Source: Raillietiella orientalis (taxonomy: Eukaryota). Taken from it: DNA of 64,000 nt. Shown here one piece after another: positions 18,239 to 63,031 of this stretch. The stretch covers positions 3,162,001 to 3,226,000 of the forward strand of contig JAYWIR010000001.1 of assembly GCA_036172245.1 (NCBI GenBank), given 5' to 3'. A program made the translations under genes and the position numbers. The number at the start of each line of letters is the position of its first letter. Position 1 is the stretch's first letter. Under the pieces are notes generated by a model, which was given only the letters and a program-made list of their open reading frames with translations, searched no databases and was not told the DNA's origin.

Positions 18239-18338
18239 ATGCAGGGGCTGATGAGGCTGCTACCGCTGGCGCTCGTCTGGCTGGGGTGGAGGAGCTGTCT
18301 GAGGGACTCGGCCGGACACGCCGCCGTGGAGGAAAAAG
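18239..18338 (+). CDS. Egfr: Egfr first coding exon 1a (distal), signal peptide MQGLMRLLPLALVWLGWRSCLRDSAGHAAVEEK
   Basis: ATG at 18239 with a second in-frame ATG at 18251, hydrophobic core LLPLALVWLGW, and strong donor AAG|GTAAG (GT at 18339). It is phase 1, so G+TC gives EEK-V-CIGT with exon 2, resembling the mature N-terminus of vertebrate EGFR (LEEKKVCQGT). The intron to exon 2 is 28,547 bp. The long-range join is inferred. Confidence 0.8.
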
Positions 18339-20861
18339 GTAAGCCACCGGGGAGACTGCGGGGCGAGGGAAGGGCAAAGGGCCCCGCCCGAAGGAGGGGA
18401 GGGGGTGGAAAAGCAGCAGACCCGAATGCAGCTCAGGAGCCATCTTTGCTTTGGAGTGTTCGCTCCCCGCGAGCGGGGGGCATCCTCTTCCCCTGCCCTG
18501 GGGTGCTCTCTCCCTGCTCCTCCCTTCGACCCTCATGGCGGATCCTCCATCGAGGGGAAGGGGGAGGGGAAGCGACGCCCCGAATTCGCCTCCGCCGCGC
18601 CGCCTGGGGGTAGATTCCGTCCGGGCGAGTGAGCGCCCCATTGTCGGCCGGACCCGCCCTCCGACGAGGACCCTGGATGGCGGCCCTCGTCCGGGCCATT
18701 AATCTTCCTCTTCCTTCTCAGCTGTTGTTGCCACCCTTCTTGTTCCCCTCCCTCCTCTTGGACGTCTCCCGAGTGTGGAAGTCCTTCGGGAAGGGCGGGA
18801 GGATGGGTGCACGGGCACCTCGGCGCTCGGGGTGGAAGGTGGGGAGAGCAGGGGGTAGAGGGAAATCTAACGCACGCCGGCCGGGGTAAGGGGCTGCGCG
18901 CGCGCTCCCATTCACGGCAACCCAAGCGAGAGGAGGAGGACGGACCGAGGGACCGCTGCCTCCCCCCCCCCCTCCTTCCCGCTTTGTTCTTCGGCGCGTC
19001 TCCTCCCCTTCCCGAGGTGACCGGGAAAGGAATCTCCTCCCGGGACGCTCCCGGCGCGAGCCCTTTCTCAGGCGGAGGAGGGAGAGCAGGGAGGATCCTC
19101 ATTCACAGGAGCGCGCGGCACGATAAATCACGTGGCTTCGCCGGCGTCGCCTTTTCTTCCCCTAACCGCTGGCGACCGGAGGTCCTCTGTAGGACGTCTC
19201 TCACTTGTTGAGGAAGAGCGACCCCGTTTTTGTGAGGCTCGCGAGGATCGGTCGCCACGGAAGGAGGAGAGAGCCGGTTGCTAGGAGGGGAGGGGGAAGC
19301 ATCTTTTTCCGGGGAAGCTTTCTCTGGTGAGGCGTGCCGTTGGTTGCTGCACGACCGCGTGCTCCGAGGCGGACCCGACGGCAACAGTTTTCCCTCCTGC
19401 GAGTGCCTGCTCTAGATCCGGGAGAGTAGGCTCCGGGCAAGCGAGAGGAGCTGTGGGGAACCCGGTGCTCTGACTCCCTCTTTTCCGCTTCCCCTAGGCA
19501 TCGCGGCGAGCGGACCCCAGTCCTCCCGTTGTCTGCACCCTGAGAGGAGGTGGAGGCAGGAGCTTGCACCGTCCGCAGGCTTCGGGCTGCAGCTCGACTG
19601 AAGGGAGCTCGAAGGAAGGATTGAGGAGCGACTCGCGCGTGGGTCTGCTACAGCTGGGCGCAAATACCCACCAGGGTTCAGCGTTGCGAACAGTTCCTTC
19701 GTCGAGCCCTTGGGTGGTTCCCATTGCGCGGGAGGCGACTCTGCCCTGCGCATCACCCGGACGTACCGCAGAGCGATTTCGATGCGAAACCACGAATCCG
19801 TCCACCTCCCTTCACTCTTGCGAGCTCGGATGGGGACGTGACAGCTTCTCCTGCTTGTAGGCTTCCTGAACACATCTGGGCTTTCGTCCTCTTTTTCCTC
19901 TACGCGTGAACCATCCAACTGCACTCTGCGCGCGAGTGCTCACCTCTCACCTCCCATCATCCGCGGAAAAAGGAATGGAAAAGGAAAGCCTTGCCATCAT
20001 AGGAACGCAGTTGACCCGCTCCATCTCTCATGATCCCTGGAACTGCTTTTAATCTTCCCATTGATCAGGAAAAAACAACACGCACGACAAACATTGTTGT
20101 CTCCGCTTCCTGATTTGTCTTGGAGGAGCTTCGAAGCGTTCCCTTCGAAGCTCTTTCGAGTTCGTAAATTTCCAGCCTCCTTCCCTCAGTGGACTCCCAC
20201 TTGTGGCCGCGATGGTTTCCTGCGGGAAATGCACACCAAGGCATGCGCCTCCATCTGGAGCAGAAGGCGCTACTTGGGGGCTTGAGTGTTGATGGCTGTT
20301 TCCCCGGTCCATCCGGATTCCTCGCTCTCTCACCGTCACTTCCCCACGTCTGTGAACTCGATACAAACGAAAACTCCTCCCTTCCCTCGAAGGTACGGTT
20401 TCTTTCTGCATCTACGTTAGCACCTGGGACGTGCGTGTTCCGAATCGGGGAAAACGTGACCATCTCCGTGTCAGAAAGATACACCCCTCCCTTCCTTCAC
20501 CGTAGCTCCTTTCTACTTCCAAATTTTTTTTTTTCTTTTTTTTTTGGGGGGGGGGGGGGGGGGAGTTCCTCGTTCAACGGCTTCCCACGAAGGCGAAGCC
20601 AAGCCTCGAGCGCGTCCCGAGGATGGAGGCTGCCAGGAGCCAGCGCACTTCGAGAGCAAGACGACGGAGCGGAACTCGCAGATTTGCCTTCCCCCTTCAT
20701 CTCGCTGAGCCTCGCGCAGTGCGGTGCAGCGTTGTGCAGCGCGCCCACTTCGCAGGCGCGCATCGTCCCGGCAAACAATGAGACAGCGCACCCAAGCTGC
20801 CTAGCGACGTCATTGTTTAGCAAACCGCTCATTTCCAACAATCGACCCGACTTATTTTCCC

Positions 20862-20932
20862 GGCATTGTTGCACCTGCGACGAGACGGCACTGAGAGGGC
20901 ATTGTTGCACCTGCGACGAGACGGCATTGAGA
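20862..20932. repeat. 36-bp tandem duplication, 2 copies (GGCATTGTTGCACCTGCGACGAGACGGCAyTGAGA)
   Basis: Copies start at 20862 and 20898 and differ by one base. Confidence 0.95.
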
Positions 20933-23900
20933 ACCAGCTTTGTGTTTGCTGCCTTTAGTTTAAGGGCAGGAAGCCTTAACACAGACTTCCTTGCACTTGG
21001 CTGAACAGAGAGAGCCCAAGTGCGCGCTCAGTCTGCCTCCCACAAAAGCTGCTGTGGACGACACTTGGCAACTATCGCTTCGCGTTTTTCCCATCTTTGC
21101 AGCCCATTTCACCTCGAGCAACAGACCGCCCTAACAAAGCTCCGGCACCATGAGCCGTCTCGGGCAACCTCTTGCAGAACGGAGCCCAAGCGAGCTCGCG
21201 GCCAATGCCGGGACATGCCAGCATGGCACGTCATGTGTTATCTGCGATTTCCCCTGGCCTTCGCTTCCCGCCCGCAAAACTTTTTGATCTCCACCCCTTG
21301 CCGAAGCAGATCTCGACATCGGGGGTCCCACCAGTTTGCTGCCGCGCCGTAATCGGACGATCGGAGATCTTCGGCATCTTTGGAATTCGGGGAAATTTTT
21401 CGACGCAGGAATCGGAGGACGTCGCGCGTACGTCGGACTTTGCGGGGCACTAGAAGTGTTGGTTGCTCGTTCTCTCGAGCAACCAAGTGGATGAGGGGAT
21501 GGCAACGGCGAGCGGATGAGGTCGCAGGAGTTCGCAAAGGCTGCCATCAGTTCCAGTCGCCTAGTGACCAACGCTCTGGGGCTGCTTCGACGGCGATTTC
21601 CCAGTTCCTTTTTCTCTGTCTCTCTCACAAGGGGGAATTTTCACCCTTGCACCGTCCGAATCCGGTTTGCCTCCACGGTCATGACCTGGCTCTCTCATGT
21701 GCCACCCTTCAGGCAACGAAACCAAGGCAGCGGTCAGTTGAGACAGCGCTCTTGCGCCTTCCGTTCCGAATACCGCGCTTGCCTCCGCGTCCGTGTGTTT
21801 TATTGCCTACTTGTTCTGTGTCCTTCCTTTCCCTTTTTCGAGCCATCATCTCCCCGAAGGCATTTAGTGTATGGTGTGGCCTGGGGATGCCGCTCCACTC
21901 CCGCGTTACAAGCCGCTGGAGCACATCCACGTGCACATCGAGTGACTTTTCTAGTCTGCATCCACCAGTCTATCTGGGACCGGAACGGGTGCCAGGCTTG
22001 TTGTTGCTCTCTTATCGACTCACCGAAACAGTCGCCGTGGCCGATGGCGATGGATGCGCCGACGGATCGGCGTGAGTCCTCTGAGGAGGGATGTTCCCAG
22101 GATCACCTTAGCATCCCGTTCTCTCCCTTACCCACACCCATCGCGGCCTCAGAGGACTGTTGCTTGCTTTGTGCTTTCTTTCTTGTGGGCTGGAACCATG
22201 TGACCTCGCGTTGCCAACGTCGAAAAATTGCCCGCCGCGGAACACTCACAGGGGTCAGCAGGCAAGGAAGGCGCCGGTGGGAGCGTCAGCGTGGGTCATG
22301 GTGAGGGCGCGAGAAATCGTTAGTGTGAAACGGGAAGCCTTTCCGGGGAAACGCATTTGGGCTCTTTCGGGAACCTGGAAGGAGTCAAACACAGGATGCT
22401 CGGTGCTCTCCTCTTCCGGAAGTGCTTGCTTTCCCTCCCCCCTCTCTTTGCCCGCATTGGGGGAGATGAAATACCGAATGACCCGAGCAATCCCGGAGGA
22501 AGTGGAAACACCAGGAAACACGTGCGTGCGTGAGTGCGTGCCTTCCTTCGCAAGGAAGAGCGGAAACGGGAACATGTGCGTTTCCCGTGGGAGGGGATGT
22601 GAGGGGAGTTGTTCATCCGGTCACTGCTCGTCCCCTTTTCCCCGAGGGTCGCGCGGGTTCGGAAGGCTTCCTCCCTTCCTCCTCCTCCTCGTTCCTCCCT
22701 TCCCACTCTCTTCCGCTCACGGCAGGAAGGAAGCGTAGCCGGAGAGGGGCGGCAGCGAGGCAGAGGTCGACCTTTGGCTACAGTCCGGGTCGGAAAGGGA
22801 GGCTGCAATTCCTCCCCCAGCCCCCTCCCCCTCCGTCTCGTTGCCTTCCGCCTCTCTAGATGACGGCTGCCTTCCGTTTCTTCCCCTTCGCCGAAGGCCT
22901 TGTTGGCCACCCTTAGGGAAGACGGGAGCGGTTGCGTGCTCTGCAACGCTGCCGCCACAGGTGCCGGCAGTCTCAGCCCGTTCCGCAGTCTGCTCTGCCG
23001 ATGCCATCTCGCGGCTGCTGCTGCTGTCGCATTCTCCCCGATCGCCGTTGCCACGAGAGTCGCCATTCCCCCTTCCTACCTGCCTCTCATATGCCTCCCG
23101 ATGCCCTTGCGGAGGTAGAGAGGGGAGCAGGGAGCGAACAGTCAGGACGCCGCCACGCCCCACGCCGAAATCGACTTGTTGCAAAAGGATGCAAATAGGG
23201 GGAGGGAGCGCTTCCTTGGGCAGGTTTCGGGGGAAAGGGCGTGCCATGACACGCCCACCGGAAGACGCTGGGCTCGGCCGAGAGGAAGAGGAACGTCCCC
23301 ATTGACCCTTGGACGCTCGCGCGCTGTCCCGCAGCGACTGCGGCAACTGCAGGCCCGCCTGCGGTGGGGCTCCGTCCCTCTGCCACACGCAAGGCGACTG
23401 CGGCGGCGGTGGAGAGCGCCAAGGGAGCTCAAGAAGGAGCTCCATCTGGTCCTGAGCCCGATTTCCCAGTGGTTACTGTCGGTCCCTACTTTTTTTTTTC
23501 GGAAGGGCGTTCGGCCCTGCTCGTGACCTTCGCGAGGTCTTCTTCAGCAGGCGTCTCGGCGTGTTTTCAGGAGGTCCTTTCCGTCGCGTGCCTAGTTGAA
23601 AGAAGGTCGCGGCGACCCTCCCCCTCCTCTCCTGCAGCTGCAGCAACAGTGGCAACAGCAGCAGTCCGAGGAGGGTAGAATGCGCCCTCTGGTCCTTTCG
23701 GGTACCCATCTGCCCTCTCACCAAGCTAAGAGAAGATGAAGCGGATGTTCCGTGGATCCTTCCGCGCCAGCGAGGAATACCAGAAGCTGCAAAACTGCCT
23801 CGAGGGATTTTTTTCTCTCCTGCAGGAACCGTCTTGACTCCAGGGGGTCAGGGGAGGGAGAACGAGCATCCGTTGCGGGTTGAGACGGCCTCACCGCCCC

Positions 23901-29900: not shown

Positions 29901-32667
29901 CAGGGATTAGAAATATTTTTTTTTTTCCTGTGTAACAGCAGCACATGACCATAGATGATGTTTAGCACAGAGAAAATTTTTAACATCTGGGAAAGGAAGC
30001 TGCCAGCTTTGTGTTTTATTTTTTTTTTCTACGAAAAGCGCAGTGACCAGCCCCCAGGGGACATCTTCCCAAGAGAACGGCAGAGTACTAATCGAAGTTC
30101 CGCGCCGTGCATTTGCAAAGCACGGAATCTCCCACCCGGAAGGCAGTCGAGGTGTAGAAACACTTCCTACACCTCGATTGCCTGTTTTCGCGCGGTTCGG
30201 AGATAGCCGGCTGACGACTTCCCGGAGAAGCCTTTCCAGTCTCGAAAAGCCATTGCCGTAGTAGTTCGGGTGCCTCACAACAGATGGCATCTGTGTTTCG
30301 TTGCTGTTTCAAGTTCCGAGCTGTGCTTTGCAGATTGGTGTCAGTAGAACAAATTGAAAACGGGAGGTAACTGAGCTTGGTGTTAATCTTAGAGATTCGG
30401 CACCAACTACCGGCGTACTTAGCGACAGTTCAAATTTTATTTTTTTATTTTGGGGGGGGGGGGGGGGGGGAGGTTCTTGGCGACATCGGAAAGACTTTCT
30501 CCTCGACGTGATTATGTCCACTTGGAAAATGGAAAAAACAATAGGCGAGGGAAGGAAAAGAAAACATGCTCGGAACACCTGAGAGAGAAAGCTTGCTTGC
30601 TTACGTGGGAGGAAAATCCGACGCTGTCAAGCCCGTGGTATTTTCTGGAAGCAGCCTGGCGACGACGACTGCAGCCGCTATTGAAATGGCGGAGTGGACC
30701 CGTGCGCGCAACTCGAAAGACGGAAGACTTTCGGAATTTGCCGGCGACGTACTCTGGAGCCAGGTCTCTTTGACCATCGCAACCCGTACGCTCTTTCCGC
30801 CATGCTGTGCTTATTTCGTTGGTGGGTGCCGCCGTCAAGCAGATCCTCAACACTTCTCTTGGACAGTGGTGCACAGGGTGCTCTCTCTCGGTTCACTCAT
30901 TTCTCTCAGATCTCCGATTTAAGGATGGCGTCCCATCTGCTGCGATAGGTTATGCGCGCTGCTACGGACCCATCGCAGCCGGATCATGAGCTCTGGACCT
31001 CCCTTTGCCCCGTAGGGCTTTTCGGAGGTCCTCGGTCCTTTTTCGAATGGCTGCAGGAGTGGAGCAAACAAAAAGCAGGGGGCGAATCAGGGGGGGCCGC
31101 GAACGCGTTCCACGCAGCCGCCTGTTCCGGCAGAAGGCAGGTGGGAACCTCTAGCAGGAGCCTCGATCACGATGGCCTGTGCCTCTTCCTCCGAAACCCA
31201 CTCTGCGTATCCGCACGTGCATGATTTCCCCGTGAAAGCGGGCGCCCGAAAGAGCGCGCAAGGCCTGGTGACCGATCTCCTTTGTGCTCCACACACGCAC
31301 TCGAGCTCGTTGCGAAACTTCTCGGCGTACGCGTCTCCGAGCTGCTTTTCCCGCGAACCAAAGCCTGTGAGTCCGCCCTCCGCCTTGCCGTGCGCATGGG
31401 AACGGTCACCAGTTTCGCGTGCTCGTTGTTGTGCAAGACCAAGAGAGGGCTTGGCTTCCCGTTGGTGTGTGTTTTCCTTGTTCGGAAATCGACGCTGCGC
31501 CGAGTGCACCTTTTCTTCTTTTCCTCGGTCTGCCTCCGTATCGACGTCGGTCGGCTGTCGTCGTTTCGGAAGACATATTGGCCGGTGGACAGCTGCAAAA
31601 GGAAACGGCCTTTGAGGTCCCTCCTACCCGGCGATCCTGGGTGCTGAAGATGCAACCTTTCTCGCCGCGCCTGGCGAAGAAAGAGGGGACGCTTCAACGT
31701 GACGCGGCACGGTGGTTGGGCACATTCAATTAGCAAGAGCCGTGGAATCTTCGTTTCGAGGAGCTGCCAGAAGAGCTGATCAAAGAGAATCGAGAGAATC
31801 CGCTTTCAGATCCTCCTGATAGCAGGGAGCGTAGCACCATTAAGAATCTCAAGGAAAACCTTCCAGGTTGTTATTGGCCAAAGTCTCCCTTTAATGATAT
31901 CACGTTAAGTCGTCACCGCTCCGTGCAGTGCCCATGCGAATTCTGGAAAGTTCATCAAGGAAAAGAGCGCTGCGCCGAGCTTGCCTTCCCCCTCACGAAA
32001 TGCAGTGACCCGAAATCATTTCCCTCCGTTTCGGTCAAGTTTTTCTCTTGTTTGTTCCAGAACCGTAATTTCGCAGGCTTCCAGGCATTGGAGCCCCAAA
32101 CTCTTCTTCTCTGCTTTCCAGTCTGCTTTCGATAATTGCTTTTTTCTTACCACATCCGCCCGAAGCAGAATCCAATGCGAGAAGATAAAAAAATAAAAAT
32201 AAGAGTAAATAAAAAAGGGGAGGGGAGCAACTGGGACCTGCGCACGAAAAATCGAAAGTCCGTAAAGTACATGGATGAGCAGGGTGTCTGTGATCGAATA
32301 AGGGAGGACGGTGACATCGAAAAGACTGCACACCGCAATTTCTTCACGCTTTTTACCCTTAACCCAACCCGAACTTGCCCCTTCCCCTTCTCCTCTTCCC
32401 CTTTTTCTAAATTTTCCCTTTTTTGTGGGTTTCGCGATTTCTGCCAGAGACGAAGAAAGGAAAGGAGTCAAGCGGATCGCTCGCGCACCCAGAGTTGCAT
32501 GAAAAGACGTTGGGTTTTTCGAAGAGCGCGAGGCTCCGAGGGTCACGTGACGCGCGCTCCTTGTGCACGCCGGCTCGGTGTTGGTCTGCACTGCACCCTG
32601 CAGACTACAGAGCAACTTCATTCGAGTTTAATGCGCAGAAGCAGGATAGACATGAACAAAGGCTGAT

Positions 32668-32833
32668 GAGCTGCGTGACAATCGCCGGATCTGTCGGCAT
32701 TGTTGCGGATACAAAGGGGAAACAACGGGCCGCGAGCTGCGTGACAATCGCCGGATCTGTCGGCATTGTTGCGGATACAATGGGGAAACAACGAGCCGCG
32801 AGCGGCGTGGCAATCGCCGGAGCTGTCGGCATT
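32668..32833. repeat. 66-bp minisatellite, about 2.5 copies, each with an internal inverted repeat
   Basis: Units start at 32668, 32734 and 32800 (GAGCTGCGTGACAATCGCCGGATCTGTCGGCATTGTTGCGGATACAA...). The third copy is partial and diverged. Confidence 0.95.
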
Positions 32834-35800
32834 TTCTTGATCTCTGTGCGCGCCGCTCTGCTCAGACAGACCGCAGGGGGAGGGGGGAGGGGGGGACACC
32901 GACCGGGTGACGTCGTTTCTCAACGTCCAGGACACAAATTCCGGATGCATGAATAAACAAGCGACCCGTGAAAATGCTGGACCCGCACGATTCACAGAGG
33001 AGGCCTTGTAAGTACGCCAGATGAGGGGGACGAGTAAAAGAGACGCGGTCGAGCGGAAGAGTCTTGGAAGCTGGATGAGTGCACGAAGGAGCAGGGATCC
33101 TGCTTCGCAATCGAACCGGAGGCTTAAGGAACTCACGACAACACCGCGAGTGAGGAATCCTCCCACGTGGAGTGCCGCGGACGGCAGCCGGCTCCAAGAA
33201 TTCGGAAAAGGAAAGCGGCTTTCGCGATCCCGACCAGCCCGCGATCTGGAGTGCCCGGATATGCAACCTTCTCCCCCCAGCGCGCATAGGGAGAAGAGGG
33301 GGAGCTCTCGAGATGGGCGACACGGTGGCTAGGCACGTTTAATTGGGAAACGCGGCAGGACGTGCGTTTCGAAGAGCTGCAAGATGAGTTGCGAAGGACT
33401 GTCGAGGAGGGAGGGCTGTCTGCCGCGGCTCCCTCTGAAGACGGAGAGGAAGGAAAAGAGGGGAAGTGGGGGTGGAGGAGGAACTGGGAAACCCTCTCCT
33501 GGGTCCCGGGTCCTTCTGGGTCCGTGCCGCTCCCCGCTTGCAGCAGAAGCAAGCCTTCCGGCGTTTCGATCTCTCCTGCATCCTTTCCATCCGAGATCGT
33601 CTCGTAGGGGGCGCAGAGTTCGAGGCTTCAGCGGCTGACGGGGGTCTCCTCGCAAATGGCGCCGCTCGGCGCTCCTGACCGCGGACTCTCCCTTTACATC
33701 CCTGCTTCTGCTGCCGCTGCCCACGCATACCTTCTGCAAAGGCCTCAGGGGGAGTCTTTAGCGCTCCTTTTCACGGCTGGAGAGGATGCGGGACATGGTT
33801 TCTCAGCGGGCGGATGCTCCCCACTGTTCCTCCTCTTCTCCCTCCGTTCCCTCTCCTTTTCCAACAAGCAGGGCAGCGAAGGGTGGCAAGGTGAAACTGA
33901 CCTTGCCCGCGTGGGAGAGTGAGGACCCGTTGGTGTCCCGAGAACTTCGAAAAGCCCCGGGCGGCGCTCACCAAGGCGTTCCCCCCTTGGAAACGGTTGC
34001 TGTGAGCTTTTTTTTTCTTGCCCTCAGGCCAGTCCAACAAACGAGAGGAGCCGCCACCTCCGCCGCCCGCTGGAGGGGGCGCGCGCGCGTCGGTCGTTTC
34101 TGCGAGCAGCCTGCGGATGCTGTGCTTCGAGGACCAAGGTTCGCTCTTCGCGGCAAGGGGTGCCTCACTGCGTGCGCGCGCATTTCGCCATCCCCTGGAG
34201 CAGCCGCAGTGCCGCTTCCGCCTGCCGAGAGAGGCCGTGCCTCCAGGGTAGAGGAGACCTCCGGCAGAGGGCGCGCGCTCTCCGTCCGACCGTCCGTCCC
34301 GCTGCCACCCTTTCGAGCGGCACCACCGCAGGGACGGGCGCGTCCCGGAGAAACTCAGGATGTCCCCGAATGATTCTTCGCCGAAGGGCGCGCCTGGTCT
34401 TCCTCTTCCCCTCCTCCCTCCGACTTGGCGCTTCCTGCCCGTTCCTGCATTCCCCAGGCGCGAAGGCCACGAGAGGCCGTCAGCGACCTCCGGCGCTGCG
34501 TGCCCGAGAAGCGCAGCGGGCGCGACCGTCCTCCTCCTCCGAAGAGAGGGAGGGGAGGAGAGAGACCCTCTCCCCTGAGGCTGGGCATCAGCTGGAGATT
34601 TCTGAGGGTGTGCATCGCCGCCACGGGTCATCCCACCGTAGCCACCACCTCGCGTGCAACTCTTCCCGTTCCAATCGTTAGGAGGATCCCCGGGCCGCAA
34701 CATCTCCTCGCGCGCCCTCCCGGAAGTCTGCTCTCGGAAGGGGAAGTGCCAGCGCCTTTCTCGAGGAACCATCCAGCTCCAGGACGCTGCGGGACGATCC
34801 GCAGCTGGCAAGTAGCGACGCGGGGAGGACCAGGAGCAGTGACCCTCGGGCGCTCGGCACCCCCTTCCCTTCCTCCATTTTGGAGAGCTGAGCGTACGGG
34901 GTGGGAACCGATCGACAAGATGGCACATCGAACTCGACTCCTCCTCCTCCTCCTTCTTCCTCCTCCTGCCGTCCAGCGGCATCCCCTCTGGTGATCGCCT
35001 CCTGCGCTAATCTCCGCGACCTTCAGCGCTCCCGACTCGTTTCCCGGCTGTGGCTGCGGCGTCCTCGGCAAGGGGTCGCCCGCAGCATCCCACGGAGCCC
35101 CGGCTGCCTCACCCCTCCTCCTCCCCTTGCATCCTTCCGGAGCTTGCGGGGTACGGCCGTAGGGTGGGAGGGTATCCTCCGAGGAGGAGCAGGGCGCAGA
35201 CGCAGTTTCCCGGTATCCTGTACCCTCCCCCTTGGTCTCCCCAGTCTCGTGCCTGCCTGCACACGGCCGGAGGGTCCACTTGCTGCGCGCTTATGCTGGA
35301 CGGGGACCAACGGAAGGATGGGTCAGCGACGACTCCCCGTGGGGGGGAAGGGTGGCCATAGTGGTCTGCCAGCGCGGGTCGTGCTCCCCCTTCGCCCTTA
35401 AGGGTTGGCGCGTGAGCGTCCTTGGGAAGCTGCACAGTTCCGGAGAGGGATAGCCGGGAGCCAAGGGGACATCTCTCCTCTCCTCTCTTCTGCGAGGAGA
35501 ACGGGCTGGCCCGGGCTGCCTTTCGCCGATGCGACCCTGGGTCAGATCTTCCGGCTGCTCGGGAGGAGGTCCCGGAGAAAGCCGGAAGCTTCCCTGCAGG
35601 TTGTCCGCTCCTTCCCCCCCGCCCGCCCTCGCGGTCAGGCAGTCTAGCTTCCCCGCTTCTGTGTGGCGGAGGGGTGGACCCTCGCGTGCGCTGAGCCCTC
35701 TCCGCCGCCTTTCTTTTTCTTTCTCCTTTCTGAATTTTCACGAAATGCACTGGCGCAGCCGTCGCCGCACGCCTCCGGGATCGGAATTTACAGTGGTGCA

Positions 35801-37030
35801 CCGCTGCGTACCTCGCGGGATGCTTCCATGACTTGGATTTTTTGCTCCAAGTTCCTTCGCGCACACGCAAAAAAAAAAAAATTTCGTCTCTTCTTCGAGC
35901 GTTCCTCTCTCCGTGCTGCTGCCATCCAGCATCCTCATCCCCTGGAGCAGGAAAATGGTCTAAGCATGTTCCCTGCCGAAAAGCTTCCTCTCAAAAAGCC
36001 AAAAAAATAAAAATGGTCGTCTCGTCGGCGGAGAGCGCTCGCTCGCGCGCGAGCAGAGAGCGACGGCAGCACCGCCTGTTGACAACCCACCGCGCCACAG
36101 CGCTCGCTCGCGCGCATCCCGTCTTCCTCCGTCAGTTGCTCGGCCGAAGAGGGGCGCAGTCGCAGTCCTTCCTGCTTTCGACAACTTCACGTCCCCCCCT
36201 CCCCCCCATTCCCTACTCTCAGGTTCCTTCGGACGCAACCGCTCGCCACCGCCACCGCCTTCGTGAGCTGTCCCCTCGCTCGCTCGCGCGCCTTCGAGAA
36301 GGGGGTGGCGGTGATACCGCCGGAGATGCGGAGGGCCGTGCTCCGGGATGGTCCATCCTCTACCGTCCCTCCTCGTCCGGCTGTGCTTCGCTGGGGCTGC
36401 TGCCTATCTCTCCCCTACGGCACGAATCGGATTGGCTCCGGAAACCCCTCGCTCGAGATCCGCTGTTCACCCGCCGGCGCACCTAACGACGTCTGTAGCT
36501 TTCCCTCCGGCCTCCATTGCCGCCCTAACCGCCTAGGAGCACCCCCTCCCTGCGGGACTTTGGTAGCGCGGACTTTCCTCCCGACGGGCGCTCAGCTCAT
36601 CTCTCCTAATCCCTCCAGCTTCTTGGCGATTACCCCTCCTCCCCCTCCTCCCCTTTGGCGTATCCGTCTTCTTATCGGGAGCGAGGCGCATCCCCTCGAA
36701 GACGCGAACGCGTCGAGGACGAAGTTCCTCCGACCTCTCCGATCCTCCCATCTTGCACTCCGTCCGTCTCCGTCACCCGTTGCCATCCCAACCGTCGCCC
36801 CGCGCGACGACTTCCGTCGGCGCCCTTTCTGCACCGCCTGCATGGGTTTCCACGGTCCTCCCTGCCTGCCCCAGCCCGGCCCGGCAGCGACACGACGACG
36901 ACACGACCTCCGGGGGATTCGGGCACACGTGAATAAACGGAGCCATCCGATTCCGGGTGGGGGAAGGGAAAAAGATGGGCCGCCTGGCAGACCGAAAGGA
37001 CCGAAAAGAGAGGAGCGGGAGGAGGGAGGG

Positions 37031-37052
37031 AGAGAGAGAGAGAGAGAGAGAG
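37031..37052. repeat. (AG)11 microsatellite
   Basis: Read directly from the sequence. Confidence 0.95.
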
Positions 37053-40000
37053 GAATTAGCAACCGGGAAAACCAGTTGATTACAGGACGATTCCACTTTG
37101 ATACCGCGCGCAGCAACCTGCTGTTTTTCTTCGCCTCTCCGTCCGCAGAAGGCAAAGACCCAGTTCCCATGCTTTCGATTCTTCGGCGAGTGGTATCCGT
37201 CGATTTTTGATAAAGGAATGCAGGTAGCGTTGCTTGTAGCATTTTTGGAAGGCTGGTCATGCGATTTTGATGGATTGCCTCCCCCTCTCACCTCCTCCTC
37301 CTTTGTTGCTGTTTTTTTTTTTTTTTTTTCTTCCTTAAAACGTAACGCTAGGAGTTTATTTCATCCCCCCCCCCCTCTCCCCCCCTTGTGCCGCCGCCTT
37401 TAGATATTCAGAAGCATCTCGAAAACAAAACGAAGCAACAGCAAAAACAAAGACGGGAATGTGTTCTCCCACAGAGGGTTTAGTTGGTGTTCAAACTTGT
37501 GCCGCGCGTTTGAACGAGACGAGCACTTTTGATTAACACTGCGCAGTTTTTTTTTTTTTCCTTCTCTCTCTCTCTCCCCCCCCCCCCCGCTCTTTTCCTA
37601 TTGGCTTCTGATGACTGCGTCTCTGCCATAGAAGAGCTTGCGCTGCGCTCAGGGAAAATCATGTGTTCCCTTGCTACAAGAATGGAAAGAATCCATGACG
37701 TCTTGGTGTTTATGCTTTCTTGACGTTGGGGCAGTGGGATTTCCTCCCACTGTTCGCCCTACGCGGCTTCTTCACCCCGAAAAGAACGTTCGCCGCTTCA
37801 CCGCTGGTCTTTTTTTTTCTTGACCCGAGTTCGAGAGACCACCAGGTTTCCGCTCAGAAAAGTGAGTTCATAGAACTCCTTCCGCGGCATTGTTGATGAC
37901 TGTGTGCCTCGGCATTGTTGACGGGGCGTTGCTCACTCTTTGTTTGCTGCGTGTCTCCGTATTGTTTACGTAACCCTGGTGACGGCGCGATCGCTAGGGG
38001 CTGCAGGGCGGAACGTGGGGCCAGCCTGAACTCGAAAACTTGTCCTCGGACCGTTTCTGGAGCTCCTTTTTCGCAGCACCTCGCTTGCTGCGGCACGTGA
38101 AAACTGCGCGCGACTCGGCCTGCGTTCGATCCACGGGTGAACCCCTTAATCCCTGGGAAATTTTCGTGTGCTACGAGGCAGCTTCTTAGCCTCACAGGCG
38201 TTCGGAACTTTCCCAATAAACTGACCTCAGCCAGATTAAGCGAGGTGCTTGTTCCTGTTCCATACGCTTTGATTCAGCATGCAGATACCTGGATAATCAG
38301 TAAACCCATAAAATAAGGTGCATGCTCGATGAACCGGCGAATTAAAAGCGAGAGACGCCTTTTCCGAAGGTACCATTATGATGCGTTTCCTTTTTTTCAA
38401 CTGTGCATGACATCGTCCTTAATCTTTTTTCACTTTTGCCTCAGGAACGAAATGGCGTTGGCGTAGTAGAGCTTTGGGGGCTACCTCTACTGACAGTGCA
38501 AATCATAACTCATTCTTTCACGCCGAACCGTACGCACGGTGGTCGAAGCTCGTGGTTTTTCATGCGTCCCCATGGCGATGATCTGCTTGGTGCAGTTCTC
38601 TGTGAACGCATCCCGGACCGGTTCGTTATCGTCGCATGTCGGCTTCTGTGGTAGTTGGGCGCTGGAGCTACCAAGCAACATCAGTCCGCGCAAGCGCAGC
38701 GTGAAGGGTGACGTCTGCTTTTCCGAAAGATGAATGCACGGCTTGCTCACAGTAGCCGAAACACCAAGGAGACGGTGGCGTCGGTTGCCGCGCGCCCCTT
38801 CTCGAACGGAGTGGCGCCTGCAAAGGCGATCAAACAGGAGACCGAATATTTCATCAGTTCCTCTTGAAAAGAGCAAAGCATTTTCTCCTTCGGTTCCCTG
38901 AGGCCCGCGTCGCTCTTGAAAACTTGGTCGCAGTCGGATTTTCAATGCGTGTGCGGCGTTGATTTCACAAGTCTGTAATTAGTGGTCAGCTGCTGCTATT
39001 TTTAACTTGATGATCTCGCCATTTTCCAGGCATGGCCCGGCATCGTTGCGAATCTTCACCCGAATGACCCTTTTATCAATGCGTTTATTATTCTTCACTT
39101 GTCTGATTACCTTTTTCCCTCTTCTCCGAATGCTTTGCGAACGGAACGTACACGCAGAAAGGTGAAGCTGCGGATTTCTTTGCTGCTTTGTGCGTCAGCT
39201 GCGACGAAGCGCGGAACGCAAGAATTCGACCATCTGACGAATCGTTGGAAAGCGTCCTCACTGGTTCGGAGTTTTCATTTCTCCGGCAAAATCCACGAAA
39301 ATTCAGAACGGACAAAAATAGACGCACGCTTGCTCCGTACGCCCCTTGGGTTTTGCGCAATGATCTTTCTCCCACTGCTGCATGCTCGTCGTTTTGTGAA
39401 ATCCCAGCCTCCTCATCTCTGCGCTACGGTGACGGCTCTTCTGCGCCGTCGCCACACACGCACCGGACCCGGGCCCTTCGCGAGGCATGCCACGCGACGG
39501 AAAAGAGGAAAAGGAGACCCGCGGGAGGGGGTCTCCTTTTCCAAAGCAAAGCTTGCAGAGCTTCTTCTTGCTTCGCCCGGTACTCAAGCTGCCCCGTACC
39601 ACCCCCGGGTACCACCTCCCGGAGAAGTCGGACGGAAACGGTGGCGTCGGATACGTTGGCGGTACCGAACTGTGGACCAAGGGAGAACTGCGTCGGCGTT
39701 TCGTAGCATCCGAGCCACTCGAATCGCACGAGTGCGAATCACGTGGCGTATCCATTCGATCTTCGTTTGTGGAACTTGGCGCGCGTTGTATCTTATCTGC
39801 GGCTCAAGTGCGCTCTTGATGCGAGGGAACGCGCGCGAAACGCGTCTTGGACGCGCGCGCATCGCCTGCCCGCACGTAAGACTCGCGCGGCTCGCGGCGG
39901 CGGCGGCGGCGCACACTTGGACAGTCCCCCTGCACACGAGGGGGGGGGGGGGGGGGGGAGGGAAGCACACGGAGCGTGTGCACGCATGCACGACCGTTGC

Positions 40001-42455
40001 GAGTGCAGGCACGCGTGTGCTCGTGTCGAGACCGCAAGAGACCTGACCTCTCAGAGCGTGGACTTTGTTGTTGTTTTTTGCTTTGTGTTTTCCTCTTGGG
40101 CTGCCTTTCCGAGGCTTTTCCTGCGTTCCTGCCCCTTCCAAGATCATCTTGAGCTCATCTCGGCAGCTCGCGTCCCGTGCCGAAGCGGGCGCAGCTTCGC
40201 ACGCCTTCTCCGCTGGGTTTCTGGCGATCTTCAAGTGCGTTTCTTCTTCTTTCTTGCAACCACTTCGGCATCCTGGAGTGGCGTAACACGTCAGGATGCG
40301 GCTGCGTACCGACGGGTGAAAGTCGGCGGTGCGGGTGAAAAAGCAGCGGCAAGCACGGAAATGGCAGGAGCAAGGTCAGGGTGTGCGCGCACCTCGGTCA
40401 ACACCGGACACCCAGGGAAGAAGGGGTTTCTTCCTTCCCGACGTGAAGCCGGCACCTCGCTTCGCGTGTTGCTCGCCCCCGCGTACCCTCGGGCGCCGCA
40501 GCGGCGCCGCTTCCGCACGTCGAGCATTGGTCAGCGCGAAGGCGCGGAACCGCCGCGGGTTCCCTTTTGCTGCCTTTGCGGGCGAGCGTTCTGTCACCCT
40601 CCGCGAAGGAGGAAGGGCCCAGACGAGCGTTCTTGGAAGCGCCAAACACCTTGCAGCAGGGTCCGTCGTCCCGTCCTCCTCGCGGCGGCAGCGGGCGGAC
40701 GCGCCGGACCCTCCCTTCCCCCCCCCCCGCCGAGCGCTACTCCTCCGCCAACTGCTGCTGCGGCGTCGGCGTCGAACGAAATTCAAGGTGCGGGCGCGCG
40801 AGCGACCCGAAATCGCAACCGTTGCGAAAACGGCGACGCCCTGGCTCTCCGCTGGAGCTGCGGTGCGACTCCTTGGTTCCGATGAACGTGTAATTAAAAT
40901 GGGAAAACGCTGGCGGCGCAAGAGCCGTGACCTTGTTCAGCCGTGTCTTCGCGGGAAAACAAAAATGATGATTCCGAAAGAAGGAGGGAGGGGGGAGGGA
41001 GAGGAGAAAAAAAATCACCTTGGAATGTTTCGCGTATGCCTGCGCGCCTGCGTGTGGTTGGTCTTTGCTGGAAACTAAGATCATCATCATTATCAGGAGG
41101 AGGAGGAGGGGGGGGGAAGGAGATGAAAGGAATCTCCAGGTCGGTTTCGGATGGCGGACGTGCGCGTTGGCTGTTGTCTCGCGGCGCCAGCCAGCTCTCT
41201 CTGCCGGGATCGAACGCCGGCGGAGTCCGCTTTGGGCGTGGAAGTGGTCGCCGATAGGTGCGCGCACGCTTGCGCCCTCTCCTGTTTGCTGCCCGTGCAC
41301 CTTCGAGTTTCTCTTCGGCTCGTTCCTTCCCGTGAGAACGCGGCCGTCCCACAGACGTCTCTCCCCCCCTCCCCTTCGTCATGCATCTCGCCTTCTTGAA
41401 GCCCTGGTTCGAGCGTCTCCCGGAGCTCTTCCCTTTCTCTCTTCCCCTTCAGTGGGCGATTGGCTGCTTCGCCAGCGCGGGACCAACATCGGACGCTGCC
41501 TGGGCTTTTTCGGAACTTCCCTGCTCTTGCAGGCGGAGCGGCTTCGTTTCTTCTCCCTCCTCGATCTCCGCGGTGCCAGCGCGCCCTCGCACGGTTTCTT
41601 CCCTTTTCTGGGGGGGGGGAGGGGATCGGTCTTTTTCCTTCGCGTCTTCCGGGGTCCCCAGGTCGCTCTTTGGTGCCTTCCGCCCTTGCGGAGCGCGCGC
41701 GGAACTTCCCGGCTGCGCGACTGTCGTAACTGGTTCGCCGCCGGTTGAGAGGAGGCAGAGAGCCGGCAAGGATCATTCCTCTCAACATCGTTGCCCCCAT
41801 CTACAACTGCATCGGTCGGTGGAGACACACGGGGGAGGGGAGGACGCGGCGGCACTCCTCCTCCACCCCCAAGCGCGCTCCCCTCCTCAAGAGGTCACGC
41901 ATCAACCCCGCAGCTATCTTATCTTTCAGTGCTCTCACGTTTTCCTCGCTCCCTGCGGTTATCTGCGCAGCTCGCGTCTTCTCGAGACGAGGGGTCGGAG
42001 AAGGCACGGCGCGCAGCCTCGCTCGTCATACCTTTCGCTCTCCTCCTCCTATCTGTGTTTTCTTCTGCTGCACCCCTCGCGCGCGCTGGTCCAGATTCCG
42101 GGTCTGCGGGCATCTCGCCGCCGCCGCCAGTCGGGCCGGGTCGGGTCGAGATGCCACCCGGCGGTAAAGGCTCTTCTACCTTCTGGTCGCAGCCGGTTCC
42201 GTCTCCAAGAGTCAACGGCTCTCCCTGCCTTGGCACGCGCCGCTGCCCAGCGTCTTCCTCCTCAAAGTCCCCCCTCCCTCCCCGACAGCTGCCTTTTTTT
42301 TTTTTTTGGACCGCGTCTCCCCCCGAGCTTCCCTCGGGGATCCTGGGTCGAGAGGCATGAAGGTCCTCGAGCAACCGTAATGGCCGGATTGAGATCAGAT
42401 GCCAGGGAAACGGACGAAACGTCAATTAGAAGACCATCCGAGGGTGCCTGTTGAA

Positions 42456-42494
42456 AGCAGCAGCAGCGACCTCAGAGCCGTCGCTGCTGCTGCT
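42456..42494. repeat. Perfect 15-bp inverted repeat with a 9-nt loop
   Basis: AGCAGCAGCAGCGAC (42456-42470) and GTCGCTGCTGCTGCT (42480-42494). Confidence 0.9.
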
Positions 42495-45400
42495 GATGCT
42501 TCGCAGGTGCATTGCTGATTGGCTCGGAGAGAGTCCTCGCTAACCTCCCTTGCCGGGAGCTTGCTTTCCGGAGGTTCCCGTTTTTCAAGGTTCATCCTAG
42601 GACCCCTCTTTTCCTCCCTTCCGCCTGGAGAGCAGTCACCGTCTCACTCCTGAGCGCAGTCGAACCCTTCCTGTTGTTGGCGGGTGGGATGAGGGGGAAA
42701 AGGTGACTCTGTGGGGTGTTGCTGTTCTGGGAGCATCTGGATGGGAACCACGTGCTCTTGACGCTTCTTATTCCCGCTTTCGTTGCCCCGGAAACCGTCC
42801 GGTCGGGGACGATCACGGCTCGGAGAGCAGCATCCACTAGACGTGAGTGCCTCATCCGTTGCAGCGTTTGCAACTCTCCTCCCGGAGGTCTCTCTCGCGC
42901 TTCAGGGTGGTTTCCTGGAGAATAGACCGCCCCCACATTCCGTTCGCGGTCGCCCGTGTGGCTAGCCATGGAGACAGAGGGGGAAAGTCTCCGCGACCCA
43001 GGTCACACGGGGCGAAGGACCTCTGCGCGCGACGATGACTTCCTCCTTCGTGTGGGAACCGCTTTGCCCTTCCCTCTCGCAGGGTACGCGCCCTTCGTGT
43101 CCTCTCCCTTAATCCGGGTCGTCCCATCCTTTGCCCCCTCCCTCATCTCCGGACGTGTCCGCGCGCAGCCTCCGGAAAGAGGAGGAAGAGCTCGTGTACC
43201 ACGCGTCCTCTCGTCCCGGCCGAAGCCGCCTCTCTCCCTCATCCGCGCGTCGCGACTGCCTTGTTGCCTCGCGCGCGTTGTCCGGGAAACGGGGAAGGAG
43301 AGGGGGAGGGGGAAGAGAGAGAGATCGAGAGAGCGTCCCGCTCGCGCGGGACGCTCGGAACTTGCAGGCGATCTAGGGAAGCGTTCTCCGGGACCGGTGC
43401 CTGCTCGCCCCTGACGAGCAGGCACCGGTCCTGGAGGGAGGGAGGTCTCCCGGGAAGCGTGCGCGCTCAAACGGCGTTCGCCGGGTGGGAAGGGGAAGGA
43501 GGGCGCGTCTTCCCAGGATGACGACGCGGAGCGGAGGTCCTCTCGCAGCGAATCCCTGCGGTGGCAACAGCAAAGGCGTTGGCTTGCCGCGCCCGAGGTC
43601 ACTCGCCGTCGGTGTATCCCGCCTCTCTTTTTTCGCTTTCTCTTCCCGAGGCGTCTCCTTGCGACCAGGTCTCTTTCCCGTCAGCAGCGGTAGCGAGGCG
43701 GAGGGGAGAGGGGAGGAGTGGAGGTGGAAGAGTCCCAGGATGCCGTCTCTGTTCCCCTCCACCCCCCCTACCCCCACCCCACTCTGCTCAGGAAAGCGTG
43801 CTTCCTGCTCCCCCGTTCCTCCTCCTCTTGCCTTCTTCGGATTGCTCCTCCCAACTCCTTCCACCCGTTCCTTTCCATCCCTCCGCGATCACTACTGCCG
43901 CCGCTGCCACTGCGCGCACGCTCGCGCGCGAGCCGGCAGCGAACGGACTGCGAGGAATGTGGCCGCGACGGCTCCCCCTCTCCCCGCCTCTCTCCCTCTC
44001 TCGGCCGAGGTGTTTTCCCCCCTCTCCGTACCTGCGGCTGCCGCTGCCGCCGACGCCGACGCCGCCTCCTCTCCGCCGTCCTGGCCCGCGGGCATGTGTG
44101 TTACCCACAATGCGTCACCGGTGTTATCGCGGCCGCCAGAGATAACCGTCAGTCGGATTCCGTCAGGACGGGAGGTCGACTGGCGCGTCCGTCCGTCCGT
44201 CCTTCCTCGCCGGAGAATTCACCTCCGCTTCCTCCCCCTCCTCCTTGCGTGACGGTGGTGGCGTGGTGTGGCAGTTCTGTGATCGTGGTGGCACACCCCC
44301 CTTCTTCCTCCCCTCCCCCCTTTCCGCCCCGCCCCGCTTCCACGGTGAGCTGCACCTCTCCCTCCCTCGCCCGTGTCCCATTTTTCAGGCAGCCTTCGCC
44401 GCCTCCAAGCGAGGGCGGCGGGCCGACCGGCGAGGGACGAGCGAGGACCCCCCCCTGTCCCGTGCCCCTCCGCCCTCTGCCCTTCCTCCCACGTGCCCGA
44501 CCTCTCCGCTGCCCGATTCGTGCCGTGACACGCGGAGGTCAGCGCGGCACGCGTAGAGAGGAACGAAATGGAGCTGCTCCGGGGACGCGCGCTTCGCCGG
44601 GCAGGTTTTCTTGTGCCGCCGCTGCGCGCGCCTCGCAGGGTGTTTTTTAGCGACACGCACTCGCTGGAGGATTTCTGGCGCGCACGCGCCCACCTCCCCT
44701 CTCCCCTGTGTGCATTCTCCCCTTCAACCCCCCACCCCACCCTTTGTTTTTTGTTTTTTTTTTTTTTTTTACCAATACGTGGGAAGCGGAGCCACGGCGT
44801 TGCTTCGCTTGGGGCTCCCTCCGGTTGTTGGGGCTGCTGCAGTCGCTCTGGGGAGAATGGAAAGAGGGAGAGGTCAACCAGGAGATGGAGGAGTTTATCC
44901 TCCTTCCTCGCTGGACCTTCCCTCTTGCGTCGCCGCGACTATTAGCCGTGCCCTGCCCGCGAGCACCGGCTGAGGGGTGGGGAAGAGCCTTCCGCGCCTT
45001 GTGGTTCCCCGCCCGCACGCGCGCTCCTGAGGGCAAAGAAGGAGGACGGACGGACGCACCCCGGGCGTTTCCCCTCTCCCAGCCACCCACGCTGCGCGCG
45101 CATCTCTCGCCGTTGCTCTCCTCCCACCCGTCGCCCCCTCCTCACCCTCCTTCCCGTTCTGCTCGGCCACGTGCTACCGTCCTCCTCCTCGTCCTCCTGT
45201 ACAGCCACCGCCGCCGCCTCCGGAGCCTCCGCAAGACGATAGCGCGGTCGCGCCAGCTGACTCACGCGCTGCGTGACCTCCCCTCTTTTCCCTTCTTGAG
45301 CTCCCGGGCAGATGTGCGTAGGGGTACGGACCAGAGAAAGAGGGAGGTAGAGGGGACGATGGTGGTGGGGAGGTGGAAGAGGAAAGCTCCACTGCCTCCA

Positions 45401-45774
45401 TCGAGAGAGAGGCGTAGCGTGGCGGCGGCATGTAGGGCAGGGGGCGGGGAAGTGGGGTGTGAGAGAGGATAAGGGGGTTGGCAGTAGGAAGAGGGTTGCG
45501 TTCCTCGACACGGCTCTCGGATCCCGCCCATTTCTATCGTCCGGAAGAGTATGGGGTTTGGCCATCACCCCACTTTCCTGCCACCTGCTCCTCCTCCTCT
45601 TCTCCTCTTCTGTTGCTCACGCGCCGCCGCCTGGCTTTCGGCTGCAGCCAGAACACGGGTCTGCTTCTTGCGCTCCAGTGGGGCAACCGTTGCTGTTTTC
45701 CGCCGCTGTGGCTGGCAAGCTGCTCTGCGGCGGGAGAAAGAGGAGAAGGTGAGAGAGGAGGAGACAATGGACCG

Positions 45775-45797
45775 CTCTCTCTCTCTCTCTCTCTCTC
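45775..45797. repeat. (CT)11 microsatellite, about 0.7 kb upstream of exon 1b
   Basis: Read directly from the sequence. It is a GAGA-type tract. Confidence 0.93.
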
Positions 45798-46149
45798 GCC
45801 GCCGCCGCCGTCGCTTGCCTCCTCCTCGGCGACCCTTTCCCTCCTCCTCCTCTTCATGATCATCTTTTTCTTCTCGAGGCAAACCACCGCCGCCGCTTTT
45901 GTTTTCCTCCTGACGACGACCTGAGGGGTCACCGATGGCCCTTCCAGGGAGAGGAAGGAAGGGAAGGGAAAAAGGCGCTCACACGTGGACGGGAATGCAC
46001 GTCATCCCCGTCTCTCCGCATCTCTCCTTCGGGTGAGATGGGTATGGGGAGAGGGGAGGGTCTGCCGCCTCGAGAGAAGACCGAGCGAAGGCTCTGCCTC
46101 GAACCGACCTCCCTGCTGCCGCGCGCGCCGCCACGCGTCCCTCGCCTGA

Positions 46150-46508
46150 AGCAGAGCCCGAGCATCGCCTTCTCTTCCAGAGTCACGATGGTGACGGCCT
46201 CCCCGACAGTCGGCTATCGCGGCGGTGGTCCGGTCTGCCGCGCAAGCAGTGCCGTCGGGCGCCCGCCCTGCTGCCACCACCGCCGTCAGCCGCCGCTGGC
46301 GTTACAGCCATCGCAGATTTTCCCGTCGTCGCCGCCGCTTCTGCCGCCGCAGTCGACGTCGTCGCTGCCGCGCAGCGAGGCGGACTGAGAGACTTGCCGC
46401 CGCCCATCCTTCCCCTCCTCTTCCCCGCCCCGCCCCACCCCTCACCTCGGTCCCGGCTCCTCCCCTCCCCCCGTTCCCGAAAAAAAAAAAGAGACATGAC
46501 TTGAGAGC
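46150..46508 (+). promoter_or_regulatory. Probable internal GC-rich promoter/5' UTR for proximal exon 1b
   Basis: GCC-rich, CpG-dense stretch with a CCCCGCCCCGCCCC GC box near 46422-46436, immediately upstream of exon 1b. Inferred from position. Confidence 0.35.
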
Positions 46509-46596
46509 ATGAGTTTGCCCGTTCTCGGGACGCTGCTCCTCTTGCTGCTCACACGGCGAGTCGGGTGCATGACGGCGGAAGAACCGGAGAAGAAAA
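46509..46596 (+). CDS. Egfr: Egfr alternative first coding exon 1b (proximal), signal peptide MSLPVLGTLLLLLLTRRVGCMTAEEPEKK
   Basis: ATG in agcATG context, Leu-rich hydrophobic core, and donor AAA|GTAGGT (GT at 46597). It is phase 1, so A+TC gives EKK-I-CIGT with exon 2 across a 289-bp intron. Confidence 0.8.
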
Positions 46597-46885
46597 GTAG
46601 GTCCTTGTTTTTGTCGCGGGGACGCACGCCGGGGTTGGGCAACGAAGGCATCCGTACTCCGCCGCCCAGCCCAGCCCGCCCCTCTCCTGCCCTGTCCCCC
46701 GCTGCCTTCCCGCGCGCCGGCGGCGAAAGGGGTGCTCTGAAAGAGGGAGAGCGAAAGGAGGGGCGCCGTGGCGGTTTCGGGACGCGCCGCCTTCCTTGCC
46801 CCCTTCTCTCCCCTCCCCCACTGACCGGAGGGAAAACCAGCCCCCCCATCATGACGTGACGTCTACTTCCGTCGTTCTCTTCTAG

Positions 46886-47010
46886 TCTGCATCGGGACCA
46901 GCGGGCGCATGTCCGTGCCTTCCAACCGGGAGCACCACTACAGGAATCTGAGGGATCGCTACACCAACTGCACCTACGTGGATGGGAACCTGGAGATCAC
47001 GTGGCTGGAG
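46886..47010 (+). CDS. Egfr: Egfr exon 2, start of receptor L-domain I (CIGTSGRMSVPSNREHHYRNLRDRYTNCTYVDGNLEITWLE)
   Basis: Acceptor ttctcttctag at 46885 and donor GAG|GTGAGC at 47011 (phase 0). The peptide is nearly identical to the arthropod Egfr N-terminal motif SVPSNxEHHYRNLRDRYTNCTYVDGNL. Confidence 0.97.
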
Positions 47011-62534: not shown

Positions 62535-62588
62535 GTGGGTGTCCCCGAAAGTACTGCTGAACGAGCATCGTTCGTCTTCCTCGTCCAG

Positions 62589-62960: not shown

Positions 62961-63031
62961 GTAAGAGCGGTGGGGGAGGCATCTTTTTTATGCGGCGAAC
63001 GACTGCTCACTCTCCTCCTACCTTTCCTCAG

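Follow-up and report, generated by a model that had tools for sequence, protein, structure and literature searches.

Two signal-peptide-like first coding exons, one of V type and one probably a drifted I type, are in frame with a single second exon in an Egfr gene of Raillietiella orientalis

Can one Egfr gene begin at two places, and if so, is such a design inherited from the arthropod ancestor or convergent? The question is raised by a 64,000-nt stretch of DNA from Raillietiella orientalis (contig JAYWIR010000001.1, positions 3,162,001 to 3,226,000 of the forward strand; hereafter the window), in which two candidate exons, the distal exon 1a and the proximal exon 1b, lie upstream of the first shared Egfr exon, exon 2. 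An earlier reading of these letters (the initial annotation) had proposed 1a and 1b as alternative signal-peptide first exons. With a probability of roughly 0.7, we favor the interpretation that this is a single-copy arthropod Egfr with two signal-peptide-like exons, likely two promoters and one exon 2, in which 1a belongs to a V-type class of first exons and 1b is a drifted member of a second, I-type class.

The coding part of exon 1a (18239–18338, + strand) comprises 100 nt, that is 33 codons and a G, and is followed by GTAAGC; it translates as MQGLMRLLPLALVWLGWRSCLRDSAGHAAVEEK, ends in the tail AAVEEK in phase 1 and contains another in-frame ATG at 18251. The coding part of exon 1b (46509–46596, + strand) comprises 88 nt, or 29 codons and an A, and is followed by GTAGGT; it translates as MSLPVLGTLLLLLLTRRVGCMTAEEPEKK, ends in EEPEKK and is likewise in phase 1. 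Exon 2 (46886–47010, + strand; CIGT…LEITWLE) opens with TC TGC ATC GGG ACC after ...CTTCTAG and provides a phase-1 acceptor for both, so that 1a joins it as EEK-V-CIGT and 1b as EKK-I-CIGT. On the same strand, the intron of the 1a isoform (18339–46885) spans 28,547 nt, includes exon 1b and has no other detected coding gene, and that of the 1b isoform (46597–46885) spans 289 nt. The exon coordinates, the joins and the first-intron lengths of 28.5 and 0.29 kb given in the initial annotation were thereby confirmed. Ten exons after exon 2 were traced by tblastn and splice sites, partly past the end of the window. The spliced frames, which have the same 11 downstream exons, are intact without internal stops (1383 amino acids from 1a and 1379 from 1b), in support of the proposal of two alternative signal-peptide exons.

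Pfam matches to PF01030, PF14843 and PF00757 were found on 62236–62961, and to PF07714 on 35–1123 of the adjoining DNA (L002); the domain names found were receptor L, furin-like, growth factor receptor IV and tyrosine kinase. Exon 2 is up to 93% identical to named arthropod EGFRs, and solved fly ectodomains align to the query from K-I-C on. By sequence, the locus qualifies as an arthropod EGFR, an ErbB-family receptor tyrosine kinase. A genome search with exon 2 returned a single match; within the reach of that search, 1a and 1b thus do not come from two gene copies. Nor are they recent duplicates of each other, as no similarity between them was detectable beyond codon shuffles (141 of 1000 reached the observed DNA score).

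Signal-peptide evidence was drawn from our own hydrophobicity scans and from scans with the (−3,−1) rule. The best signal-peptide shape in the region is that of exon 1b, with an ATG four residues ahead of a core of typical hydrophobicity (2.64) and possible cleavage sites at VGC/M or CMT/A. For 1a, the rule points to SAG/H or GHA/A, with a long polar stretch ahead of the site. A scan that required an ATG, a 9-mer with a hydrophobicity of 2.4 or more and a phase-1 donor scoring 3 or more on a rough home-made donor matrix found two candidates only in positions 1–46885 of the window, 1a and 1b, each ending in K plus G or A. In 60 dinucleotide shuffles of these 46.9 kb, the mean was 0.17 candidates, and 0 of 60 shuffles had a candidate anywhere that ended in K or R plus A or G. 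Over 144 kb, the scan found six candidate donors on the + strand (four besides 1a and 1b) and one on the − strand; such exons do arise by chance, and none of the five others ends in K plus G or A. In a looser listing, an ATG near the core occurred together with a consensus donor in 1a and 1b only.

Compared across arthropod Egfr genes, as the initial annotation had suggested, N-termini form two classes. Three protein searches (the best 120 of 478, of 249 and of 873 matches) gave 251 homologues, 62 of which were dropped because the C[IVL]G[TI] motif was missing from their first 200 residues or was preceded by fewer than 16. The 189 usable N-termini comprised 48 ending in [KR]-V, 91 ending in [KR]-I/M and 50 others, mostly intron read-through from genomic open reading frame (ORF) calls. 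V-type N-termini are acidic and short, with a median of 30.5 residues, and typically read (V/I)EER-V, with the join EE[RK]-V-CIGT; I-type N-termini are longer (median 46) and basic, typically FVKGK-I, with the join KGK-I-CIGT. The classes were set by the junction residues and are circular for those; the residues before the junction are independent. Among these homologues, the V type was seen in insects, branchiopods, copepods, decapods, a tick, a mite, a scorpion, a spider and a horseshoe crab, and the I type in insects, a springtail, crustaceans, a centipede, ticks, mites, spiders and a horseshoe crab. The acidic-then-Lys ending, which the initial annotation had noted in both exons, is not a hallmark common to the two classes: it typifies V-type tails alone, whereas I-type tails are basic (KGK), a pattern that 1b does not follow.

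Judged by its sequence, 1a is clearly a V-type exon, with a short N-terminus, the acidic x-x-E/D-E-[RK] tail and a final G that yields V. On six-residue tail profiles built from 37 V and 73 I proteins, it scored 10.6 as a V-type tail (class median 13.1) and −0 to 0.5 on the other profile, and ranked first among 997 G/GT sites in 87 kb, the next best scoring 7.0. Exon 1b carries the final K and A that give K-I in the I class (AAG AAA A, then GT) and lacks the basic [KH]-G-K tail with Gly at −3, reading E-K-K-I. It appears to occupy the slot of the second exon, either as a diverged, putatively orthologous I-type exon or as a replacement.

To what extent the two classes belong to one gene was apparent from the supplement of a decapod study (PMC11024359), here in the first 58 of 114 'VCIGT' matches and the first 58 of 141 'ICIGT' matches; the rest may add or change pairs. 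Among the matches listed, 17 of 23 arthropod species with a signal-peptide V form also have an I form in the same gene, paired by a shared locus id (16) or an assembly cluster (1). They are Daphnia, Lepeophtheirus, Paracyclopina, Gammarus, Asellus, Proasellus coiffaiti, Ligia, Eriocheir, Calcinus, Carcinus, Paratya, Procambarus, Uca, Scylla, Gecarcinus, Blattella and Drosophila melanogaster, and so include a branchiopod, copepods, an amphipod, isopods, decapods, a cockroach and a fly. Lernaea, Janicella, Panulirus, Cancer, Bombyx and Branchinella have a V form without an I partner among those matches. A Daphnia transcript reading KGK-SKWIAFVFILVMIHFRQ-VCIGT (PMC11024359 supplement) would fit a short retained intron after an I-type exon, in which case the I-type exon would be the proximal one in Daphnia as well. 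In addition, the X3 and X2 isoforms of Nasonia are 98% identical. Both types appear as named NCBI isoforms in Nasonia and Fopius, so the expectation that single-isoform annotation would miss one of the exons does not always hold.

In chelicerates, the two classes sit on orthologous bodies: the V-type Dermacentor andersoni protein is 95.7% identical to that of Amblyomma (I) and 92.5% to that of D. silvarum (I) and groups with them, and among spiders V-type Parasteatoda and I-type Argiope are 79.7% identical. Because V/I pairs occur in many pancrustaceans and both classes occur in ticks, mites and spiders, the two-first-exon Egfr is most likely ancestral to arthropods, and the simplest reading of the V/I split would be a single origin before the chelicerate–mandibulate divergence. 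Of the two possibilities raised by the initial annotation, the evidence thus leans strongly to ancestry and disfavors convergence. Furthermore, as the human tail ALEEKK-V and the N-terminus EVEER-V of the tardigrade Hypsibius resemble the V class, the V tail looks older than arthropods.

In a FastTree phylogeny of 51 rows (the query and 50 proteins hand-picked from the 216 then available), the query fell outside the starred chelicerate plus myriapod, malacostracan plus barnacle, branchiopod, copepod and insect groups. Its EGFR branch measured 0.58 against a median of 0.22, and its top identity to the stored homologues was 68–70%, which suggests a deep, poorly sampled lineage as the source of the genome. 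Drift of the 1b tail is plausible because this EGFR is long-branched and falls in no sampled group.

Does each exon also have its own promoter? Ahead of 1a, a candidate distal promoter was predicted at 17305–17449 (+ strand) by consensus match only, with GC boxes at about 17305–17320 and an initiator-like TCATTT at 17444; it lies in the most GC-rich kilobase of the window, its motifs are 795–930 nt before 1a, and the 1 kb ahead of 1a is free of ATG. A strong acceptor lies 29 nt upstream of the 1a ATG, and a 5′ untranslated region (UTR) intron is predicted at 17905–18210 (+ strand), from the donor GCG/GTGAGC at 17905 to this pyrimidine-CAG acceptor at 18210. That donor scored 2.9 (the gene's own donors, 0.7–7.4) and the acceptor 12.3, ranking 21st of 3901 AG sites. 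Because this acceptor is on par with the true acceptors of the gene (9.9–13.0) and a donor precedes it, a leader exon is possible, and 1a may perhaps be the first coding exon behind a non-coding leader rather than the first exon. The 'first exon' status given to 1a in the initial annotation thus stands for coding sequence and may not stand for the transcript. The 1 kb upstream of 1b has nine ATGs and no clear core-promoter motif; a donor/acceptor pair at 45749–46352 could form a 5′-UTR intron there. Separate 5′ UTRs were seen in a crab only: V and I transcripts of Gecarcinus carry unrelated ones (about 440 and 735 nt) and merge only at the junction in the supplement entries at hand (PMC11024359), which favors separate starts, although the assembled 5′ ends may be incomplete.

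Several observations weigh against two ancestral, separately promoted signal-peptide exons. The core of 1a is weak: its best 11-mer has a hydrophobicity of 1.93, the second lowest in comparison with 37 V-type homologues (1.17–3.53). Exon 1b scored −1.6 on the I-type tail profile, where the class minimum is 3.9, and ranked 141st of 742 A/GT sites; it has K at −3, where 84 of 91 I-type proteins have G, and the net charge of its last eight residues is −1, a value that is at least 0 in all 91. Its donor is middling (3.2), no TATA or strict initiator was found within 1.5 kb of it, and a two-codon upstream ORF (ATG ACT TGA; 46497–46505, + strand) ends 3 nt before its start. Among the homologues listed, neither chelicerates nor myriapods provided a V/I pair from one species, and Strigamia had the I type only. 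The passages at hand of the fly study PMC1208880 do not state which isoform is distal. As an observation in its own right, the upstream ORF could lower or fine-tune the translational output of the 1b isoform.

Much of this would also be expected if both exons are used and 1b is not ancestral, a KGK-I exon having been lost and a new proximal signal-peptide exon gained, either de novo or as an old copy of the V-type exon, so that exon turnover kept or regained the two-promoter layout. Exon 1b fits the V tail profile slightly better than the I profile (2.6 versus −1.6) and shares the acidity of V-type tails; with 29 codons it falls short of every one of the 73 I-type N-termini in the profile set (32–106 residues), and no KGK-type exon with an ATG and a good donor was found in the long intron or the 40 kb further upstream. 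The tardigrade Ramazzottius, in the entries at hand, has two gene-model N-termini that both end in V, and second exons may thus arise repeatedly. However, 1b retains the class-specific final A, with its unusual A/GT donor, the lack of similarity between 1a and 1b speaks against copying, the long EGFR branch leads one to expect drift, and the G was also lost in 7 of 91 I-type tails. We regard such a replacement as unlikely. That 1a alone is real and 1b a chance signal-peptide-like ORF in an intron, the second exon having been lost in this lineage, would likewise account for the failure of 1b on the I-type profile, and the four other + strand candidates in 144 kb have a similar general shape by chance. 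Against this, 1b has the best signal-peptide shape of the region, shows the K plus A ending of I-type exons and sits only 289 nt away from exon 2; no shuffle produced a candidate ending in K or R plus A or G, and second exons are the rule among relatives. A chance origin of 1b is, in our view, very improbable.

The exons could also be spliced in a mutually exclusive manner from one promoter, with a non-coding leader (donor 17905) joined to 1a at acceptor 18210 or to 1b at an acceptor near 46352. The strength of the 18210 acceptor, an acceptor scoring 9.9 at 46352 and the lack of a clear core-promoter motif at 1b would suit such an arrangement. But the crab V and I transcripts have no common leader in the entries at hand, the fly has two promoters (PMC1208880, in the passages at hand), and pyrimidine-rich acceptor look-alikes are frequent, four of them scoring at least 10 in the 300 nt before 1a; we consider the chance of a single promoter slim.

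Other sequences that resembled first exons were rejected. An I-like frame at 36567–36723, with a hydrophobic core and RRGR before A/GTTCCT, has no ATG and a non-consensus donor; its resemblance to an I-type tail is probably due to chance; less probably, it is a decayed exon. No hydrophobic core accompanies an NRKSGK plus A/GT site 39 kb upstream of the window, and an EEKV motif at 45740 has a phase-0 donor and no signal peptide. A nested or neighboring gene that might own 1a was also rejected, with no strong codon-usage segment in window positions 1–46800 or in the 40 kb upstream and no Pfam match in any of 31 ORFs from the same regions. The same Pfam run took in 35 ORFs; among the other four, the L2 and kinase exons matched, and the short exon-2 ORF and the downstream neighbor did not.

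If 1a and 1b are alternative starts, each would have a promoter and 5′ UTR to itself, in the manner of fly and crab, and the two promoters would yield two mRNAs with different UTRs and signal peptides. The distal 1a would be the likely older exon 1, shared with tardigrades and resembling that of human EGFR; the proximal 1b would be the second, I-type exon of the arthropod ancestor, its tail having drifted from KGK-I to EKK-I in a fast-evolving lineage. Signal peptidase would cut near GHA/AVEEK in 1a and VGC/MTAEE in 1b, leaving five to nine differing residues ahead of the first cysteine of domain I, and the receptors are predicted to differ only in the signal peptide and these few mature N-terminal residues. 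Since the receptors should be nearly the same, the likely role would be regulatory, namely separate control of Egfr dose by tissue or stage, not two biochemically different receptors. The span to transcribe is 47.8 kb from the 1a start and 19.5 kb from the 1b start; at known elongation rates, the extra 28 kb or so would amount to roughly 10–20 min, a small effect.

We also lean, by a little over even odds, to a broader proposal: that a two-start Egfr is an unrecognized part of the arthropod ground plan, predating the chelicerate–mandibulate split and possibly shared with tardigrades, with both exons kept for more than 500 million years along with their class-specific tails (acidic EE[RK]V versus basic KGKI) and with selection keeping the second promoter, not the peptide. 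As part of the same proposal, the distal exon would be homologous to exon 1 of vertebrate EGFR, and the present lineage would have kept the second exon and lost its basic tail.

The remainder of the gene follows exon 2 on the + strand. Shared exons were placed at 54065–54272 (L1 domain), 55216–55541, 59134–59331, 62236–62534 (5′ part of the L2 domain), 62589–62960 (3′ part of the L2 domain, after a predicted 54-nt intron), 63032–63314 and 63417–63617 (both cysteine-rich), and 63775–64000, which runs 34 nt beyond the window. The transmembrane/kinase exon and the last exon lie in the adjoining DNA past the window end, with the stop at L002:2057. At the junction of exons 2 and 3 (47008–47010 / 54065), the sequence is LEITWLE-HELDLSF; relatives usually have LELTWLQDENLDLSF, which is about two residues longer. 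The predicted 54-nt intron (62535–62588, GTGGGT…TCCAG) is in frame and stop-free; its retention would place 18 extra residues between YFR and NLE, and it may escape gene finders. About 650 nt past the Egfr stop lies a convergent neighbor (L002 2709–3677, − strand) without a Pfam match, for which the Atlas gives a lead, and a lead only, to myofilin/flightin at 0.81. Within the long intron, 32655–32852 holds a 66-nt unit three times in tandem (100, 89 and 64% identity).

The two-exon design of the fly and the isoforms of decapods are known already; the apparent conservation across arthropods is a modest insight, and the locus itself is ordinary. If both exons date to the arthropod ancestor, the split would be under lasting selection. 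The mud-crab 'EGFR1' and 'EGFR2', once taken as two genes, correspond to the two exon classes, and annotators could use the tails EE[RK]-G/GT and KGK-A/GT to find missing first exons. What the window by itself adds is a correct two-isoform gene model.

How does this locus compare with known systems? In the fly, the distal isoform is the V form. The two fly forms are said to be called type I and type II and reportedly go back to Schejter et al. in 1986; to our knowledge, the purpose of these long-known first exons is unclear. Human EGFR, by comparison, has a single signal-peptide exon, the textbook state, and its exon 1 ends at the same phase-1 position. In the passages at hand, fly Egfr is described as having a pair of alternate N-terminal first exons and a second promoter, with about 24 kb between them (6085 versus ~30200–30500), and a second-promoter variant is associated with wing shape (PMC1208880). 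The present locus resembles it in that two ATG-bearing signal-peptide exons, 28 kb apart here, are in phase with one shared exon and join it as K-V-CIGT and K-I-CIGT. The fly junctions given in the initial annotation were borne out by two D. melanogaster transcripts of TR4663_c3_g1, GNMK-V (i2) and EFVKGK-I (i3), among the supplement matches listed (PMC11024359). Unlike 1b, with its 29 codons and EEPEKK, the fly I-type N-terminus has about 100 residues and ends in EFVKGK; the proximal intron is 289 nt here, whereas polymorphisms of fly intron 2 span at least 31442–37282 (PMC1208880, in part); and 1a has the canonical EEK-V tail, whereas the fly tail NMK-V is derived.

In decapods, Scylla combines the V-type Sp-EGFR1 (ALQEQK-V) and the I-type Sp-EGFR2a/2b (DFHKGK-I) on one body, and Gecarcinus and Carcinus have isoforms EGFR1-A1 to A4; in the passages at hand, these forms are assigned to a single gene as its isoforms, which corrects an earlier interpretation as two genes (PMC11024359). 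The main text of that paper uses 'signal peptide' 0 times, and its passages at hand do not mention two conserved first-exon classes. A study of chelicerate Egfr paralogues (10.1101/2021.01.11.426205) does not mention isoforms in the passages at hand, and those of PMC5332939 contain nothing relevant. Our literature search, which did not reach key subscription papers and returned many cancer papers, found no statement that both exon classes are conserved across arthropods. Unlike the decapod work, the window gives a genomic layout, in a lineage outside Malacostraca. Beyond arthropods, Ramazzottius has two signal-peptide N-termini on one body, EQFPEK-V and EIEER-V (RvY_00994_1 and _2, in the entries at hand); both are V-ending gene models, it is uncertain whether the FPEK form is homologous to the I class of arthropods, and the pair hints at a two-start design that predates arthropods. 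In human EGFR (PDB 3qwq_A), the sequence after the signal peptide reads ALEEKK-VCQGT, which matches both the V class, A-(V/I)EE[RK]-V-C, and exon 1a of this locus, A-AVEEK-V-C.

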